The notes under the pieces: generated by a model | The model's database searches: none | What the model was told of the DNA's origin: nothing | Seen by the model: only the letters and a program-made list of their open reading frames with translations | Position numbers and translations under genes: made by a program | In this document: piece by piece, positions 2,765 through 52,218 of the stretch | Layout of the letters: the number at the start of each line of letters is the position of its first letter | Position numbering within the stretch: position 1 is the stretch's first letter | Source of the DNA: Mustelus asterias | Lineage: Eukaryota | Assembly: GCF_964213995.1 (NCBI RefSeq) | Contig: NC_135830.1 | Coordinates: 13,950,001-14,014,000, forward strand | DNA: 64,000 nt | Direction: 5' to 3'

Positions 2765-3995
2765 GGTTCGATCAGTGAGTTTGCTGATGGTCCAAAAATT
2801 GGTGATGTGGTAAATAGCGAGGAGGAAAACCTTAGATTACAGGATGATGTGGACGAGCAGGTTCGGTGGGCAGAACAGTGGCAAATGTGATTTAACCCTG
2901 AAATGTCTGAGGTGATGCATTTTGGAAGGACTAACAAGGCAAAGGAACTCGGCCTTTTGGCTGAGATCGGGTGTAGTGTGGTCGGCAGCCCATGGTCGGC
3001 CGCACTTGGTCGGGGTCATTGGGTTGCGCTGGGGCTTCATGTGTTTCATATGAAGCAATTTTTAAAAGCGTCATCTCGGCCTTTTGGCTGAGGTGCAGAT
3101 GGGTTCAAGTCTTGGAGGAGGAGCCTCCCCCTTCTCCAATCAGCTTGGCTCATGTGGATCGGGCCCGGGACAGGGTGGTTTGGTCGCTCGCCCTGTCTTG
3201 TCGGCCTGGATCTGGGGTGTCTCAACTTGTTGGGACTCTGAATTGGATTTGATTTGATTGAATTGGAAAAGTATTAAAAAAAAGGAACAGATAATGAACA
3301 ATAGGACGCCAGGAAGTACAGAAGACCAGAGGGACCTTGGGGTGCATGTCCATTGGACCCCGAAGACAGCAGGACAGATTGATGAACTGGTTAAGAAGGG
3401 ATATGGGATACTTGTCTTTTTTAGCCAAGGCATCAAATATTTCAGCAGGCAGGTTATGATTGAGTGTATAAAATGCTGGAGTACTGTTTGCAGTTCGGGT
3501 CGCCACACTTTAGGAAGGATGTGATTGCACTGGAGAAGGTGCAGAGGAGATTCACCAGGATGTTGCCTGGGCTGGAACGTGTCAGTCATGAAGAGAGGCT
3601 GGTTAGGCTCGAATTGGTCTCCCTAAAGCAGAGAAGGCTGAGGGGGGGGCCTGATTGAGATGTACAAAAATATGATCCCTCAGTCCACTGACCTTTAGTA
3701 GCTGGGTCAATATCCAGGGACATAGATTTAAGTGAGGGGCAGGAAATTTAGAGGGGATTTGAGGGAAAAGATTTTCACCCAGAGGGTGGTGGGAATCTGG
3801 AACTCACTGCCTGAAAGGGTGAGAGAGGTGGGAACGCTCAACATTAAGAAGCATTTAGATAAGTACTTGAAGTGCCATAACATATAAGGCTGCTACTGAC
3901 CAAGTGGTGAAAGGTGGGATTAGAACAGATTGGTGCTTGAGAGCTAGCACAAATACGATGGGTCAAAGGGCCTCTTGCTGTGCTTTAAAACTCTG
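2765..3995 (+). mobile_element. CR1 LINE 3' fragment hosting the U2-headed insertion
   Basis: FADG/D, EVMHFG, RDLGVHVH, LEYCLQFGSPH and LEKVQRRFTRMLPGL motifs in fragmented frames. Confidence 0.9.
2948..3280 (+). mobile_element. U2-snRNA-headed short retroposon (dimeric, A-tailed, 7-bp TSD)
   Basis: U2 nt 8-39 match at 2948-2979 (28/32); second U2 nt 7-27 match at 3074-3094; A-rich tail; TSD aaaggaa at 2941-2947 and 3281-3287, and removing the insert restores contiguous CR1 sequence. Confidence 0.8.
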
Positions 3996-4798
3996 AGGAC
4001 AGAATTATGACAGTGTGGTTATGTGATAAATATTGGATGGATCTATAATAAAGTACATTTATTATTATTTCTTGTCTTGTAATGTAGTACTGTAGCTACG
4101 TTATATATTTCTAGTCAGAGTCATTACAGCAGAGGAGGAGTCCATTGGACAATTCGAGGCCCTGCTGACTCTCTGTCGAGCAATTCTGTCAGTCTGGAGA
4201 GGGTCCCATTCTGTACTCCTGCAGCACCCATCCAATCTCATTGAGAAATTACTGATCATCTCTGCTTGACTACCCTCACAGGCAGCAAGTTCAGGAGCAT
4301 GACTAATCACTACCCCCATATCTTAACCAACTTACAGATTTAGGGGAATGAGTGGGGAAAGAATGTTCTATCGAAACTAGAATTATCTGTTCTGAATTTT
4401 GATCCCGTAGTGACTCTGATGTCTGCTGCAAACTCCTTTTATAGGATATCAGAAGGTTAGGATCCATTGACAGAATCCCAAACCATATGCCACGTCAAGA
4501 TTTGACAGTCGCTCAATTCATCTGGACCTGAATACCATCGGCCTTTGCATCTAGAAGGAGAAATGTTTCTCTGTTCTGTCTGCTTCAGAAGGCGTTAAAC
4601 GTCAGTGTGACTGGAAATGCACCAACGCACACACACCCGAGTGAGAGTGTTCCAGTGCACTGACTGTGGAAAGAGCTTTAACCAGTTATATAGCCTGAAA
4701 ATACATCACAGCATTCACAGTGGGCAGAGACTGTACCTGTGTTCTGTGTGAGGTTTAACTGATTGTTTAACCTGGAGAGTCACAAGGACACCCGCACC

Positions 4799-5641
4799 AT
4801 GGAGAAACCGTGGAAATGTGGGGACTGTGGGAAGGGATTCAGATTCCCATCTCGGCTGGAAATTCATCGACGTATTCACACTGAGGAGTGGCCATTCACC
4901 TGCTCTGTGTGTGGCATGGGATTCACTTATTTCTCCAAGTTGTTGAACCACAAAGTCACTCTCACCAATGAGAGACCCTTTAAATGCTCCGACTGTGGGA
5001 GCAGCTTCAAAAGGTCGCAGGAACTGCTGAGACACGAGCGAATTCACACTGAGGAGAAACCGTTCAGCTGCTCTCAATGCTCAAAGAGATTTAGATCAAC
5101 ATCCAACCTGCAGGAACACCAGCGAGTTCACACCAGTGAGAGACCCTTTAAATGCTCCGACTGTGGGAGTGAATTCAAAAGGTCTCAGGATCTGAGGGAC
5201 CACCAGCACATTCACACCGAGGAGAGGCCGTTCAGCTGCTCTCACTGCACAAAGAGGTTTAGAACATCATCCCACCTGCAGAGACACCAGCGAATTCACA
5301 CTGGGGAGAAACCATTCACCTGCTCTGTGTGTGGGAAGGGATTCACTGATTCATTCAACCTGCGGGAACACCAGCGAACTCACATTGGGGAGAGGCCATT
5401 TATCTGCTGTGTGTGTGGAAAGGGATTCACCCGGGCATCCAGCCTGCTGACACACCAGCGGGTTCACACTGGGGAGGGGCTGTTTACCTGCTCTCACTGT
5501 GGGAAGGGATTCACTCAGTTATCCAGACTGCAGGTACACGTTCGAGTTCACACTGGGGAGAGACCATTCACCTGCTCTGTATGTGGAAAGGGATTCACTC
5601 AGTCAACATCCCTGCAGAGACACCAGCGAGTTCACAAGTGA
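4799..5641 (+). CDS. C2H2 zinc-finger protein ZNF-1 (10 fingers, one degenerate; no KRAB seen)
   Basis: ORF 4763..5641, first ATG 4799 (MEKPWKC); tandem CxxC...HxxxH with TGE(K/R)PF linkers; splice acceptor at 4443-4444. Confidence 0.85.
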
Positions 5642-24856: not shown

Positions 24857-26203
24857 TCACAATAGTTCCTTGTGAATTCGCTGGTGTTTCAGCAGATTTG
24901 ATGACTGACTGAATCCCTTCCCACACACAGAGCAAGTGAACGGCTTCTCCCCAGTGTGAACTCGTTGGTGACCCTGCAACGTGTGTGAGTGAGCAAAGTC
25001 CTTCCCACATTGGGAACAAGTGAACATCCTCTCCCCAGTGTGAATCCGTTGGTGTATTGCTAGGTTGGATGATTGACTGAATCCCTTCCCACACTGGGAA
25101 CAGATGAATGGTCTCTCCCCAGTGTGAACTCGCTGATGTGTCCACAGATTGCCTGAGTGTGCAAATCCCTTCCCACACTGGGAGCAGCTGAAAGGCTTCT
25201 CCCCAGTGTGAGTTCGCTGGTGTGCCAGCAGGTGAGATGAGTCAGTGAATCGCTTCCCACACTGGGAGCAAGTTAACGGCCTCTCCCCAGTGTGAACTCG
25301 CAGGTGTATCAGGAGGTTGGATGAGCGAGCAAATCCCTTCCCACACTGGGAGCAAGTGAATGGCTTTTCCCCAGTGTGAACTCGCTGGTGTAATGATAGG
25401 TTAGATGACTGACTGAATGCCTTCCCACAAACAGAACAGCTGAATGGTCTCTCCCCAGTGTGGGTCCTCTGGTGTATGTGTAAGCTGGATGACTGAGTGA
25501 ATCCCTTCCCACACTGGGAGCAGATGAACGGCCTCTCCCCAGTGTGAATTCGCTGGTGTGTCAGCAGGTTGGCTGAGAGCGCGAATCTCTTCCCACATTG
25601 AGAACAGCTGAATGGCCTCTCCCCATTGTGAACGTGCTGGTGTTTTGTTAGCATGGATGATGCTTTGAAGCCCTTCCCACACACAGCGCAAGTGAATGGT
25701 CTGTCCTCACTGTGAATTCGCTGGTGTTTTGCTAGGTTTGATGATTGATTGAATCCCTTCCCACACACAGAGCAGGTGAATGGTTTCTCCCCCGTGTGAG
25801 TTCGCTTGTGCAATGCTAGGCTGAATGACCGATTGAATGCCTTCCCACACAGAGAGCAGGTGAATGGCCTCTCCTCAGTGTGAGTCCTCTGGTGTATATG
25901 TAAACTGGATGACTGAGTGAATCCTTTCCCACAGTGGGAGCAGGTGAATGGCCTCTCCCCTGTGTGACTACGTTGATGAATTTCCAGCAAGGATGGGGAT
26001 TTGAATCCCTTCTCACAGTCCCCACATTTCCACAGTTTCTCTCTGTTGTGACTGCAATTATGTTCCGAAAGGTCAGATGATTGGCTGAAGTCTTGTCCAC
26101 ACACAGAACATGTGTACAGTTTCTCTCCACTGTGAATAGTGCTATTTTCTTCCATGTTCAAAATGCAATGATATTCAGGGTACAATAAATTGGCCGACTC
26201 CAT
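24857..26203 (-). CDS. C2H2 zinc-finger protein ZNF-4 (15 fingers, intact)
   Basis: 448-aa ORF of uninterrupted fingers; acceptor at 26265-26266. Confidence 0.92.
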
Positions 26204-26799
26204 AAGGTGCTGATACCAGGCTTGGTTTCAGTTTCCAAACTGCAAATCCTCCTCTTCTAATACCCTGTGAAATTGAATTAAAACAGAAAAAGGGAGTGAG
26301 AGAGAACCCACAAAAACACAAAGGCAGGTTGTGAAATTGAGCTGAATGAACCTGGTAATTTGTGGGGACAGCACTAGGAAAAAGTGACCATGAAAACTGC
26401 TGGATTGTCAAAACACCCAATTGATTTCCTAATGTCCTTCAGGGAAGGGAACCTGCCATCCAGTCTGGGCACTATGGGAAAAGACAGAGAGAAATAGGAG
26501 AGATCGGGAATGAAGGAGAGGGATTTTATACATCTACAACTCAATGAGAACATTGATAGAATCTCCCAAACCCTCAACTTCCACCACCTCGAAGGACCAA
26601 GATAGCAGGTAAATGTGAGCATCATCAACTCCAAGTTCCCCTCCAACTCATATCTTGACTTGTCTGACATCCAGTACTAAAAAACAGAAATTTCTTTCAA
26701 AAAATACTGGGAAAACTGAACCCATTGTGTTCAGTCCCCACTACATTTCCGGGGTTTGGGTTTGAACAACATGTTTACAAAGCCTCTCCACCCACCCGC

Positions 26800-28195: not shown

Positions 28196-28790
28196 TTTAC
28201 AGTTTGGCCACATTATGAACACACCTTCCTCGGCCATGTACTCTGAGTGGGACTGGAAACCAGAGCTTCTGACTCAGAAGAAGGGTCACTCCCCACTGCA
28301 CCACATCTTCACAGTGCACAATCCAGACTAATAAATCCAACAGGAAAACAGGAGACATTTCTTTTCACAAACAGTTGTTAAAATGTGGAACTGACTGGAA
28401 GTAGTTGAGACAGATAACTTAGATTTTTTCAAAAGGAAACGAGATGAGAATGAGAGAAAAGTAAAGCTGAAAGGCTGAGACGAGGTTAGCAGAATGGGAG
28501 GAGACTCGTGTGGAGTAGAAACTCCGTACAGACTAGATTGCCCGAATGGCCTGTTTGTGTATTATATAGTCTATGTAATTCTTCGTGAAATTATTTTGCA
28601 GGGTAATGGAAGAGGAGGATTTGCAGTCAGGAAAAACAAACCAAACTTTGTGTCACAATTGGAAAGTCAATTCGTCAGGATGTGAAGATTTGTACACCTG
28701 AAGGGATTTAATTGACTGTCTCAGCAGGAAGCTGGTGAGAGTCTGTAAACCTGCTCTTCCTGTGGGGAGGGATTGATACAGCTGGAAAAC

Positions 28791-30131
28791 ATGCTGACAC
28801 GACAGCGAACTCGCAATAGTGAGAGTTCATTCACCTGCTCCGTGTGTGGGAAGAAATTCATGTGTTCGTCCAACCTGCTGGCTCACCAACTCGATCACAT
28901 TATTCAGAAGCCTCTTCAAAGCTCTGACTCTGGGGACAGCGTTGAAACGCCTGAGGAACAGATCCAACACCAGCTCCTTCACACTGACGAGAGACCGTTC
29001 AGCTGCTCCCACTGCGGGAAGAGGTTCAGCCAGTCCTCCCGCCTTGCAGAGCACCAGCTCCTTCACACACACGAGAGACCGTTCAGCTGCTCTCACTGTG
29101 GGGAGTCGTTCAGCAACTCAGTGCATCTCACTGAGCACCAGCAAGTTCACACCAAGGACAGGCCATTCAGCTGCTCCCAGTGTGGGAAGAGATTCTCTCA
29201 GTCCTCCCACTACACTGAGCACCAGCTCATTCATTCTGATGAGAGAAGTTTTAAATGCTCAGAGTGTGAGAAGACCTTTAAAACGAACAATAGTCTCCTG
29301 AGACACCAGTGCACTCACAGTGGGGAGAGGCCGTTCCCGTGCTCTGTGTGTGGGAAGAGATTCAATTATTCATTCCACCTTCTGAGGCACAAACTTGTTC
29401 ACACGGGGGAGAAACCATTCACCTGCTCCGAGTGTGGGAATGGATACACTCGCTCATCTCATCTTGTGATTCACCAACGAATTCACACCGGAGAAAGGCC
29501 GTTCACCTGCTCCGAGTGTGGGAGGGGATTCACTCGTTCAACGCACCTTGTGATGCACAAGCGGATTCACATTGGGGAGAGGCCATTCTCTTGCTCTGTG
29601 TGTGGGAAGAGATTCACTCAGTCATCCGCCCTGCGCACACACAAGCGAGTTCACACTGGGGAGAGACCGTTCACCTGCTTCGTGTGTGGGAAGAGTTTCC
29701 CTCGTTTGTCCCATGTTGTGATACACGAGCGGGTTCACACCGGGGAGAGGCCGTACATTTGTCATGTGTGCGGGAGGGCCTTTACTTGTTTACACCACGT
29801 GCAGAAACACCAGCTTGTTCACACCGGGGAGAAGGCCTTCATCTGCTCCGTGTGTGGGAAGCGTTTCCCTGAGTTCTCCAGCCTCCAGAGACACGAACGC
29901 ATCCACACTGGGGAGAAGCCCTTCACCTGCTGTGTGTGTGGGAAGGGATTTGTTCAGTCGTTCGACCTGGTTAAACACCGGCGAGTTCACACTAGGAAGA
30001 AGCTGCTCACCTGCTCTGTGTGTGAGAAGAGATTTACTCGGACATCCCGCCTGCTGAGACACCAGAAACTTCACATCTTACCGACAAAGCTGGACTCTGC
30101 TGTTGCTGCTGAGAATCACACCCAGGACTGA
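28791..30131 (+). CDS. C2H2 zinc-finger protein ZNF-5 (14 fingers plus 1 degenerate, intact)
   Basis: ORF 28773..30131, first ATG 28791; acceptor at 28600-28601. Confidence 0.92.
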   Translation: MLTRQRTRNSESSFTCSVCGKKFMCSSNLLAHQLDHIIQKPLQSSDSGDSVETPEEQIQHQLLHTDERPFSCSHCGKRFSQSSRLAEHQLLHTHERPFSCSHCGESFSNSVHLTEHQQVHTKDRPFSCSQCGKRFSQSSHYTEHQLIHSDERSFKCSECEKTFKTNNSLLRHQCTHSGERPFPCSVCGKRFNYSFHLLRHKLVHTGEKPFTCSECGNGYTRSSHLVIHQRIHTGERPFTCSECGRGFTRSTHLVMHKRIHIGERPFSCSVCGKRFTQSSALRTHKRVHTGERPFTCFVCGKSFPRLSHVVIHERVHTGERPYICHVCGRAFTCLHHVQKHQLVHTGEKAFICSVCGKRFPEFSSLQRHERIHTGEKPFTCCVCGKGFVQSFDLVKHRRVHTRKKLLTCSVCEKRFTRTSRLLRHQKLHILPTKLDSAVAAENHTQD

Positions 30132-35796: not shown

Positions 35797-36720
35797 TCAT
35801 TTGTGAACTTTCTGGTGTCTCAAAAGATGGGATGAGTGGATGAATGTCTTCCCACAGTCGGAGCAAAGGAATGGCCTCTCCCCAGTGTGAACTCGCTGGT
35901 GTGTCAGAAGATTGGCTGAATGAATGAATCCTTTTCCACACGTGGAGCAGGTGAACGACCTCTCCCCAGTGTGAACTCGCTGGTGTTTCTGGAGGCTGGA
36001 TGACAGAGTGAATCCTGTCCCACACACTGTACATCTGAATGGCCTCTCCCCATTGTGAACTCGCTGGTGTGTCAGCAGGTCAGTTGTGGTTCTGTAAGTC
36101 TTCTCACACTCAGAGCATTTGAAAAGTCTTTTATCCGTGTGAACCAGTTGGTGTTTAGCGAGGTGGGATGATCGTGCAAATGCCTTCTCACACACAGCGC
36201 AGGTGAAGGGCCTCTCCCCAGTGTGAACCCGCTGGTGTATCAGCAATTCACTTGTGGTTTTATAACTCTTCTCACATTCAGTACATTTGAAAGGTCTGTT
36301 ATCAGTGTGAACCAGACGATGTGTAGTGAGGTAGGATAATCGCGTGAATCCCTTCCCACACACAGAGCAGGTGAATGGCCTCTCCCCAGTGTGAGTGCGT
36401 TCATGTTCGATGAGGTTCTGTGATCGTATGAACCCCCTCCCACAGTGAGAGCAACTGAACTGTCTCTCAGTGTGAACAACCTGGTGCGTAACCAGGTCCT
36501 CCGAGATTTTAAAGTTGCTTTCACAGTCCGAGCGGTTTAACAGCTTCTCATCAAGGTGAACTTGCTGGTGTGAAAGCAGGTGGGATGACTGAATGAATCC
36601 CTTCCCACACATGGAGCAGGTGAATGGTCTCTCCCCAGTGTGACTGCGTTGATGATTTTTAAGCTGGGAAGGGTAACTGAACCCCTTAGCGCAATATGCA
36701 CATTTCCACTGTTTCTCCAT
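35797..36720 (-). CDS. C2H2 zinc-finger protein ZNF-7 (10 fingers plus 1 degenerate, intact)
   Basis: 307-aa ORF; acceptor at 37063-37064; putative first-exon donor at 41951. Confidence 0.9.
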   Translation of the reverse strand: MEKQWKCAYCAKGFSYPSQLKNHQRSHTGERPFTCSMCGKGFIQSSHLLSHQQVHLDEKLLNRSDCESNFKISEDLVTHQVVHTERQFSCSHCGRGFIRSQNLIEHERTHTGERPFTCSVCGKGFTRLSYLTTHRLVHTDNRPFKCTECEKSYKTTSELLIHQRVHTGERPFTCAVCEKAFARSSHLAKHQLVHTDKRLFKCSECEKTYRTTTDLLTHQRVHNGERPFRCTVCGTGFTLSSSLQKHQRVHTGERSFTCSTCGKGFIHSANLLTHQRVHTGERPFLCSDCGKTFIHSSHLLRHQKVHK

Positions 36721-37459
36721 GGTGCTGGTGTCCTTGTGTATCTCCAGGTTGGATGATCAGTTGAAGCCTCATCCACACACAGAACACGTCATGTTTTCTC
36801 CTGGCTGTGAATGTTGTGATGTTTTTTTCAGGCTGTGTAACTGGTTAAAGCTCTTTCCACACTCAGTTCACTGGAACACTCTCACTCGGGTGTGTGTGTG
36901 TCTCGGTGCTTTTCCAGTCACACTGATGTTTGCAAAACATTTCTGCTTCCACATTCAAAGGTCGATGATAATCAGGTTCTGATGAATGGAACAATTTTGT
37001 TGTATTTTTTGTGTGATGTTGTGTTTGAGTTTCACATTTGCAAAACTTCCTCTTCTAATACCCTGTAAAAGGAGTTTACAAAAATTATCATTGTAACATG
37101 ATAGAAATTCAGAACAGATATTTCATTTTTTATTGAATATTCTTTTCCCTTGTTTGTTTCCTCAAATATGTAGTCCAAACAAACTAAAAGAAGAAAAAGA
37201 TCAGCAACAAAGTACCAACAAGAAGAAAGGTTAGCTTCCTAATGAACCAGAATGTTGTTTCCAATGTCTTGAAGTTACTTTGTACCCTGCGATGCTCATC
37301 AGTTGTGGAAGGTAGCAAGTGTATCAGTGGACACCACATGCTCCCTCTCCAGGAGAGACTGCAAGGATATGCGACATCCACCCAATTGCTATGGACACTG
37401 CTCATTCAGCTTCAACAAATTGTTGTTTGAATCTGGCCCAAGAGCAGGTCCAGGAGAAG

Positions 37460-50573: not shown

Positions 50574-50919
50574 ATGTGAGGAAGAATATTTTGATGCAGC
50601 GAATGGTAATGACCTGGAACTCGCTGCCTACGAGGGAGGAGGAAGTGGAGACAATAAACAATTACAAAGGAAATTGGATGGGCATTGGGGCGTTTCAAAC
50701 AGAAATGCTGACTAAATATCTCTGAACTTCCTAACATCCTGTCACTCTGTGATCCTTGTGAAATCTGAAACCAGGTATTCGCAACAAAACTCAAAGAGCA
50801 TCAGCCCAATGGAGGCAAAGTTGTGAGACCGGCCAGTCCAGCAGAAAGAAACCCTCCAACTCTCCCCATTGACCGATATAATTGAAAGCAGAAACAAGAA
50901 CAGCAAAATCGAACACTGG

Positions 50920-52218
50920 AACCACTCGTGAACTCGCTGGTGTACCAACAGCTGAGATGAAAGACTGAATCTCTTCTCACACACAGAGCAGCTGAACGGT
51001 CTCTCCCCAGTGTGAACTCCCTGGTGTGTCTGCAGGCAGAATAACCGAGAGAATCCCTTCCCACACACAGAGCAGATGAACGGTTTCTCCCCAGTGTGAA
51101 CTTGTTGGTGTTTCTGCTGGCTGGATGAATCACTGAACCGCTTCCCACACAGAGCAGGTGAATGGTCTCTCCCCAGTGTGAACTCGCTGGTGCCTCCACA
51201 GGTGGGATGAAGTTATGAATTCCTTCCCACACTGAGAGCAGCTGAACGGCCTCTCCCCAGTGTGAACTCGTTGGTGTGTCCGCAGGTTGGATGAAGTTAT
51301 GAATTCCTTCCCACACTGAGAGCAGGTGAACGGCCTCTCCCCAGTGTGAATTCGCTGGTGTGTCCGCAGGCTGGATGACCGAGTGAATCCCTTCCCACAC
51401 TGAGAGCAGGTGAACGGTCTCTCCCCAGTGTGAACTTGCTGGTGTGTCCGCAGGCTGGATGAAGCTCTGAATCCCTCCCCACACTGAGAGCAGGTGAAGG
51501 GCCTCTCCCCAGTGTGAACTCGCTGGTGTATCAGCAGGCTGGATGAAGCTCTGAATCCCTCCCCACACTGACAGCAGGTGAATGGTCTCTCCCCGGTGTG
51601 AACTCACTGGTGTGTCCGCAGGCTGGAAAACTGACTGAATCCCTTCCCACACTGAGAGCAGGTAAATGGCCTCTCCCCAGTGTGAACTCGCTGGTGTGAC
51701 TGCAGATTGGATAACCGAGTGAACTTGTTCCCACACTGAGAGCAGGTGAACGGTCTTTCTCCAGTGTGAACTCGCTGGTGTTTCTGCAACGTGGATAACA
51801 GAGCGAATCCTTCCCCACACTGAGAGCAGGTGAATGGTCTCTCCCCGGTGTGAACTCGCTGGTGTGTCCGCAGGCTGGAAAACTGACTGAATCCCTTCCC
51901 ACACTGAGAGCAGGTGAATGGCCTCTCCCCAGTGTGAACTCGCTGGTGTGTCTGCAGATTGGATAACCGAGTGAACTTGTTACCACACTGAGAGCAGGTG
52001 AACGGTCTCTCTCCAGTGTGAACTCGCTGGTGTTTCTGCAACGTGGATAACAGAGCGAATCCCTCCCCACACTGAGAGCAGATGAATGGCCTCTCCCCAG
52101 TGTGACTGCGCCGATGAGCTTCCAGCTGAGATGGGGCTCTGTATCTCTTCCCACAGTCCGCACATTTCCATGGTTTCTCCATGGTGCAGGTGTCCTTGCC
52201 GCTCTCTTGGGTGGACAA
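50920..52218 (-). pseudogene. C2H2 ZNF-9 (15 fingers) with nonsense codon and frameshift
   Basis: CGA>TGA at 51604-51606; 2-bp frameshift at ~51150; acceptor at 52531-52532; paralogue of ZNF-2. Confidence 0.85.

Follow-up and report, generated by a model that had tools for sequence, protein, structure and literature searches.

Sense-strand A>G changes in a U2-headed SINE of the shark Mustelus asterias point to ADAR-type editing of its RNA before retrotransposition

The closest described relatives in design of the element reported here are SINEU-1 to SINEU-3 of crocodilians, which are likewise short and non-coding, with a U2-derived head, repeated U2 segments, internal T runs, an A tail, target duplications, tandem insertions and a probable Tx1 partner (Kojima 2015, PMC4494074, in its available part). 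Keno, of the Tx1 clade, and Utopia are autonomous elements with a downstream U2 flank starting at nt 38/39 (PMC4640811, in its available part), the same flank that is found in M. asterias. With regard to editing, A>G clusters thought to be made in RNA and carried through reverse transcription are known in Rous-associated virus, avian leukosis virus and HTLV-2 (PMC12925331), and deaminase clusters in genomic copies have been detected for APOBEC-edited endogenous retroelements by comparison with subfamily consensus sequences, in a screen that selected G-to-A and filtered against A-to-G changes (PMC4866542, PMC2873906). The double-stranded RNA of human Alu, also a SINE, is an ADAR substrate; ADAR1 edits it mainly in polymerase II mRNAs and not in polymerase III Alu transcripts, and the restriction of L1 and Alu is editing-independent (PMC5974252); for all these systems the statements refer to the available portions of the papers.

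Anatomy and insertion site of the copy

The window, that is the whole 64,000-nucleotide stretch of NC_135830.1 that was analysed, contains at 2948-3280 a young SINE in which two segments derive from U2 snRNA; this copy is 5'-truncated and lacks the first 7 nt. The empty site, with a single target copy, is present in 11 block paralogues (93-97% identity) and therefore defines the insertion as 2948-3280, so that the element extends beyond position 3240, at which the initial annotation had ended it. The 8-base target duplication is one base off from the empty allele, and the older repeat that was split by the insertion is presumably CR1-like, a label taken over from the first annotation. The features are the following:

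2770..3990, + strand: older repeat split by the SINE, without A>G excess (paralogue comparison)
2941..2948, + strand: left target-site duplication, AAAGGAAC, whose final C is also the first base of the element (sequence and empty-site paralogues)
2948..3280, + strand: U2-headed SINE copy with 22 sense-strand A>G changes (family and paralogue comparison)
2948..2979, + strand: head 1, U2 snRNA nt 8-39, with A>G at 2963, 2969, 2970 and 2978
2948..3033, + strand: predicted long hairpin of the U2 head with about 3004-3033, with further A>G at 3013, 3021, 3026 and 3032 (fold of the A-restored RNA; 25 aligned copies)
3036..3073, + strand: short hairpin and A/T-rich linker, with A>G at 3041
3075..3094, + strand: head 2, U2 snRNA nt 8-27, with A>G at 3090 and 3093
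3098..3236, + strand: body with three predicted hairpins
3237..3280, + strand: conserved 3' tail and short A tract, without A>G here and without excess across the family
3281..3288, + strand: right target-site duplication (sequence and empty-site paralogues)
4763..5641, + strand: C2H2 zinc-finger reading frame, a neighbour in the duplicated block (context)

In the body, A>G is found at 3098, 3102, 3123, 3156, 3161, 3167, 3203, 3215-3217 and 3233. The U2 5' motif occurs twice, at 2948 and at 3075, where chance would give 0.07 occurrences; at the Rfam gathering score there is no match in the window, the U2 match being a weak one (E 0.76). The linker segment 3057-3068 resembles the region of the U2 Sm-binding site in the Rfam alignment, and a shielding of this segment from editing by Sm binding is a speculative extension of that resemblance.

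The window belongs to a zinc-finger cluster that was duplicated recently and has many paralogues (87-100%), and further C2H2 frames lie at 24857-26227, 28749-30131 and 35797-36756; a repetitive open frame of 392 aa on the minus strand (50801-51979), with a weak TMP-repeat match, is probably a tandem repeat. A search of the same genome (3.68 Gb) identified eight near-identical filled places on six contigs, which show 0-22 differences in about 2,850 bases and thus represent one insertion duplicated afterwards to eight places. A sequencing or assembly artefact is extremely unlikely: the evidence is that of the assembly and not of raw reads, but the same changes recur at these eight places, and their direction tracks the strand of the element and not that of the contig.

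A>G changes in the copy and across the family

The six mismatches to U2 in the two heads had been reported as exclusively A>G, and this holds (6/6) both with L184, where the genome has an intact U2 gene (175.5 bits), and with the family majority as the reference. Since the U2 gene has A at the head sites, A is the ancestral base there, and the reversed polarity, in which an older, G-rich state survives in the window copy and G disappeared from the majority by CpG decay or APOBEC action, is refuted for these positions. Elsewhere G is a true subfamily allele at 3028 and 3033, as that account would predict, but the changed sites vary among copies and occur on many haplotypes, and the divergence of the window copy other than A>G amounts to 2-3 bases only; the probability of reversed polarity is negligible.

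When the copy is compared with the majority of 22 other insertions, selected by their likeness to it, 22/25 differences are sense-strand A>G, the family consensus having A and not G at these sites; the figure is 24/27 against 93 anchor-sampled copies, where the two extra sites are the subfamily alleles at 3028 and 3033, and 20/22 against the 7 nearest relatives. The count of 8 A in the 93 nt of 2948-3040, 7 of them after C or G, was correct; the G before one of these A (2964) is an edited A as well. The observation that linker and tail keep their A is valid for the window copy (23/23 kept, including 11/11 in the linker at 3048-3073, vs 22/49 changed elsewhere; p 5e-5, for regions picked post hoc), but the linker is edited in some other copies of the family.

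The changes are confined to the element, in which 22/72 A are changed to G vs 4/481 in the flanks (Fisher p 1.4e-17), the latter showing 28 changes in 1,679 columns against 13 paralogues. In particular, the host repeat has no A>G excess (3/255 A vs 2/194 T for T>C), as the initial annotation predicted for an edited transcript; this control is based on empty-site paralogues, a first control having been too divergent, with no columns in the 5' flank. These data bear on the timing of the changes, which might have arisen after insertion by strand-biased DNA mutation, GC-biased gene conversion, or conversion from edited read-through cDNA. The exact time of the changes cannot be read from a static genome and, at site 3203, the most diverged of the eight paralogues, L008 (G000:C229), has A where the seven others have G, so that at least one site was altered after insertion, whether from A to G or from G to A; the A of L008 may be a CpG-decay reversion or a later change. 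A post-insertion origin is nevertheless very unlikely, because the other 21/22 changes are common to all eight paralogues, the changes end at the boundaries of the element, the excess of T>C, A>C or T>G expected from biased conversion is not seen, and inverted neighbours are not enriched near edited copies (3/34 vs 4/55 for unedited ones), the window copy having none in the 64-kb window.

The family to which the copy belongs is about 340 bp long, with a non-U2 body shared across copies and mosaic subfamilies. Exact matches in the own genome number 980 for an A-free internal 30-mer and at least 3,849 for a 22-mer of the tail, with 0 for the controls, and many copies are 92-93% identical without gaps. 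Many of them are inserted in tandem, and they show 5' truncations, target duplications and short A tails. The family shares with the SINEU type a U2-derived head, a length below 500 bp, many copies, a shared body, an A tail and target duplications. Two copies, L138 and L186, have longer or doubled U2 heads at their 5' ends, which suggests repeated template switching to U2 RNA.

The family-wide sample draws on the internal anchor, with 90 among its first 100 listed places, and on the tail anchor, with 30 places, all on the two largest contigs, and comprises 133 copies when tandem neighbours are included (3/218 copies were removed as duplicates). In these copies A>G affects 145/7,228 sites vs 67/9,972 for T>C (odds ratio 3.0, p 1e-14), in agreement with the A>G enrichment over T>C that the initial annotation had predicted, and is overdispersed (variance-to-mean 4.8 vs 1.15). 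At least four changes are carried by 12 copies for A>G and by 1 for T>C after symmetric flank trimming; before trimming the numbers were 17 vs 7, at least four of the T>C cases being 5'-truncated copies with a misaligned flank. The A>G signature had been regarded as that of one copy, and it proves instead to be recurrent, with clustered A>G in 12/133 copies, or about one in eleven (95% interval 5-15%); if the sample is typical, there would be a few hundred hyper-edited insertions genome-wide. In the same 133 copies G>A is as frequent as C>T (no significant difference, p 0.58; variance-to-mean 1.3), and sense-strand G>A clusters, the mark of APOBEC DNA editing, were not detected. Two other repeats from the flanks, which belong to older families and are weak controls, gave 11.7 vs 23.3 and 33.8 vs 22.9 per thousand for A>G vs T>C.

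The excess is also regional: in the 93 internal-anchor copies A>G vs T>C per thousand is 35.8 vs 2.2 at 2948-3045 and 19.4 vs 3.4 at 3116-3236, with no A>G excess in the tail, the linker or head 2. The four A>G changes of the head, within a 20-base pattern, recur at 22 places that differ in subfamily body and flanks (two share flanks), and in the copies with this pattern as many as 23 changes, further or total, were called per copy; one inherited variant is therefore insufficient to explain a four-change head on many bodies with varied further changes. In four copies (L192, L193, L200 and L204) nearly every A is changed through the linker and head 2.

Some sites behave as hot spots, with G in 22/74 copies at 3021 and in 12/71 at 3026, on several haplotypes. 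In addition, in a subfamily of 165 matches (L268-L297 among them), G occupies the otherwise invariant U2 nt 35 in 69 among the first 100 listed, across several haplotypes, and is the majority base at the equivalents of 3021 and 3026. A single edited master for all G-bearing copies was considered and is unsupported, as G at 3021, 3026 and U2 nt 35 occurs on several haplotypes; subfamilies are mosaic, however, and G alleles may have been inherited, the hot-spot G being compatible both with frequent editing of selected sites and with an origin of the copies from edited sources.

Neighbour bias and predicted RNA fold

The neighbour test was performed on the 31 copies with at least four changes, omitting the selected head bases. 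The share of A changed depends on the 5' neighbour, being 47/172 (27.3%) after U, 81/433 (18.7%) after A, 46/472 (9.7%) after C and 33/454 (7.3%) after G (p 1e-12; p 2e-5 with sites as units), and the full 5' order of ADAR is U>A>C>G. In the window copy alone the neighbour bias foreseen at the outset is present only in part: the 5'-U preference is detectable (7/11 vs 15/61, p 0.03) but the 5'-G depletion is not, 6/21 A after G being changed. Depletion of an upstream G is an ADAR signature shared across animals, and the downstream preference is for G in some lineages, including mammals and reptiles, and for A in others (PMC5625713). In the edited copies the 3' order is A 17.7%, G 15.6%, C 10.1% and U 9.1%, and is not G-first, with A runs as a confounding factor.

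The RNA with A restored is predicted to fold with a z of -9.6 (40 shuffles), the U2 head lying within a long imperfect hairpin, and the copy as inserted with a z of -6.2; across 25 aligned copies the stems are kept and the loops are variable, with a two-sided change in 1/95 pairs, which is weak covariation. The A>G excess falls on the two domains of predicted long hairpins, and the sparing of the tail may be due to weak pairing, protein cover or selection for copying. The expectation that changes are confined to predicted stems fails at the level of single bases, with 11/44 paired and 11/28 unpaired A changed in the window copy (p 0.29) and no enrichment of paired bases in the pooled edited copies (35/418 paired vs 31/242 unpaired); several changed A are in internal loops, and the fold leaves 3123 and 3215-3217 in single strands. 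Of the hairpin positions initially cited for G opposite T, G3233 is a true change in the hairpin at 3219-3236; G3167 is the sole one in the longer hairpin, where the G that comes next is the subfamily majority base. A single predicted fold does not account for the near-complete change of linker and head 2 in the four copies mentioned above, for which an antisense partner may be responsible, or a different fold in which head 2 pairs with the anti-head arm (predicted -29.5 vs -37.1 kcal/mol).

The same observations could be accommodated by RNA deaminated before insertion by a non-ADAR relative of the ADAT or ADAD type, or on an antisense duplex instead of its own hairpins. The genome contains several multi-exon loci with an adenosine-deaminase domain (A_deamin), which could be of ADAR, ADAT or ADAD type, a long perfect duplex would suit those copies in which linker and head 2 are changed almost completely, and the 3' order departs from G-first. 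The 5' order, on the other hand, fits ADAR, a full antisense duplex would not spare the tail, and an antisense duplex would still be the work of ADAR, only the substrate step being different, so that this version too has a very low probability. Editing of the SINE RNA by an ADAR-type enzyme, followed by retrotransposition, is the best reading and can be held with high confidence, and the initial proposal of a hyper-edited transcript that was reverse-transcribed and inserted is supported by the family majority, the A>G excess, the clean flanks and the pooled neighbour bias. What the sequences show is the strand, direction and clustering of the changes, the neighbour bias, the confinement to the element and its predicted hairpin domains, and the absence from the LINE described below.

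U2 loci, proposed mechanism and known systems

At 5 places, some of them inside U2 arrays, the SINE tail is directly followed by U2 from nt 38/39 onward, and at one locus (L185) the 3' end of a LINE with a zf-RVT domain occupies the same U2 site. The LINE, which has zf-RVT and ZCCHC3-type domains and in which no 3' tail shared with the SINE was seen, is the probable partner as a Tx1/Keno-like element, judging from the shared U2 site and adjacency only. Its 3' ends show no A>G excess (35/6,833 vs 45/6,651 for T>C, p 0.22; 28/31 copies with usable columns), in contrast to the SINE (p 5e-16), which argues against reverse-transcriptase error. U2 is heavily modified, and a reverse transcriptase that is error-prone or misreads modified nucleotides of U2, with C placed opposite A, would indeed predict sense-strand A>G limited to the inserted sequence. 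However, the 28 LINE copies without excess contradict this explanation if the LINE is the partner, 16/22 changes lie outside the U2-derived segments, and the changes are clustered in few copies and limited to domains, which leaves it even less probable than a post-insertion origin.

Some further observations concern these loci. SINE or U2-head sequence follows within 50 bases in 6/30 sampled LINE 3' ends (L209, L218, L221, L224, L230 and L235), which suggests that target sites are shared and that insertions occurred in series. A variant U2 gene forms tandem arrays with a unit of about 600 bp (L183 and L184, on G000:C14 and C21), in which some units have the SINE at nt 38/39 and are candidate source copies. 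A piece of about 1 kb (L181:700-1700; G000:C1, about 80,334,100-80,335,100), with a 10-base duplication at its bounds, combines a LINE tail, the U2 remainder, array spacer, a U2 head with the SINE, a short U2 piece and a LINE 3' end, and has the appearance of a U2 array's read-through transcript that was retrotransposed.

In the proposed mechanism, source copies inserted in U2 genes at nt 38/39 would be transcribed by polymerase II as U2-SINE read-through RNA, which would fold into long imperfect hairpins. An ADAR-type deaminase in the nucleus would then convert adenosine to inosine, to an extent that differs for each molecule, and during target-primed reverse transcription, likely by a Tx1/Keno-type enzyme, inosine would template C and be fixed as G; the block with the insertion was later duplicated to eight places. 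Transcription of the SINE by polymerase II would explain an editing record unlike that of typical SINEs. A further, tentative idea, which is possible but rather doubtful, is that editing acts as a heritable mutagen steering SINE evolution, edited copies returning to U2 genes and founding subfamilies, with ADAR rewriting the germ-line template of the element and of the U2-gene heads.

The family offers a genomic record of RNA editing entering inherited DNA at scale, in which every insertion captures, for one RNA molecule, the ADAR activity of the germ line and the fold of that RNA. It bears on the question whether ADAR edits the transposing RNA or merely binds it and also on the transcription of promoter-less snRNA-headed SINEs, because transcription by polymerase II from U2 loci would agree with editing; moreover, editing can distort the age and subfamily calls of SINEs. 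A literature search, with most subscription journals and Repbase outside its reach, found no paper on a shark U2 SINE, and a search similarly limited with respect to subscription journals found none on ADAR-edited SINE insertions or on genome-fixed ADAR-edited retrocopies. The passage of edited RNA into DNA has been reported for some retroviruses, as have APOBEC clusters in genomic elements; ADAR-edited SINE insertions were not found in the literature searched.

As for the known systems, SINEU is stated to be exclusive to crocodilians and to prefer Mariner-N4, whereas the M. asterias SINE belongs to another lineage and is found in U2 genes at the Keno site; the available part of the SINEU paper describes no editing, and the likeness of the two refers to their design (PMC4494074). 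Compared with Keno and Utopia, the 3' 1.5 kb of the local LINE is without editing signature. The retroviruses with A>G clusters are infectious (PMC12925331, available part), whereas here a non-LTR element of the host is involved, fixed in the germ line and with an estimated hundreds of copies. The APOBEC cases covered by the available text consist of G>A on cDNA, mostly in LTR elements, as opposed to A>G on the RNA strand in the M. asterias SINE (PMC4866542, PMC2873906). Finally, unlike the case of Alu, in M. asterias the transposing RNA itself appears to be edited.
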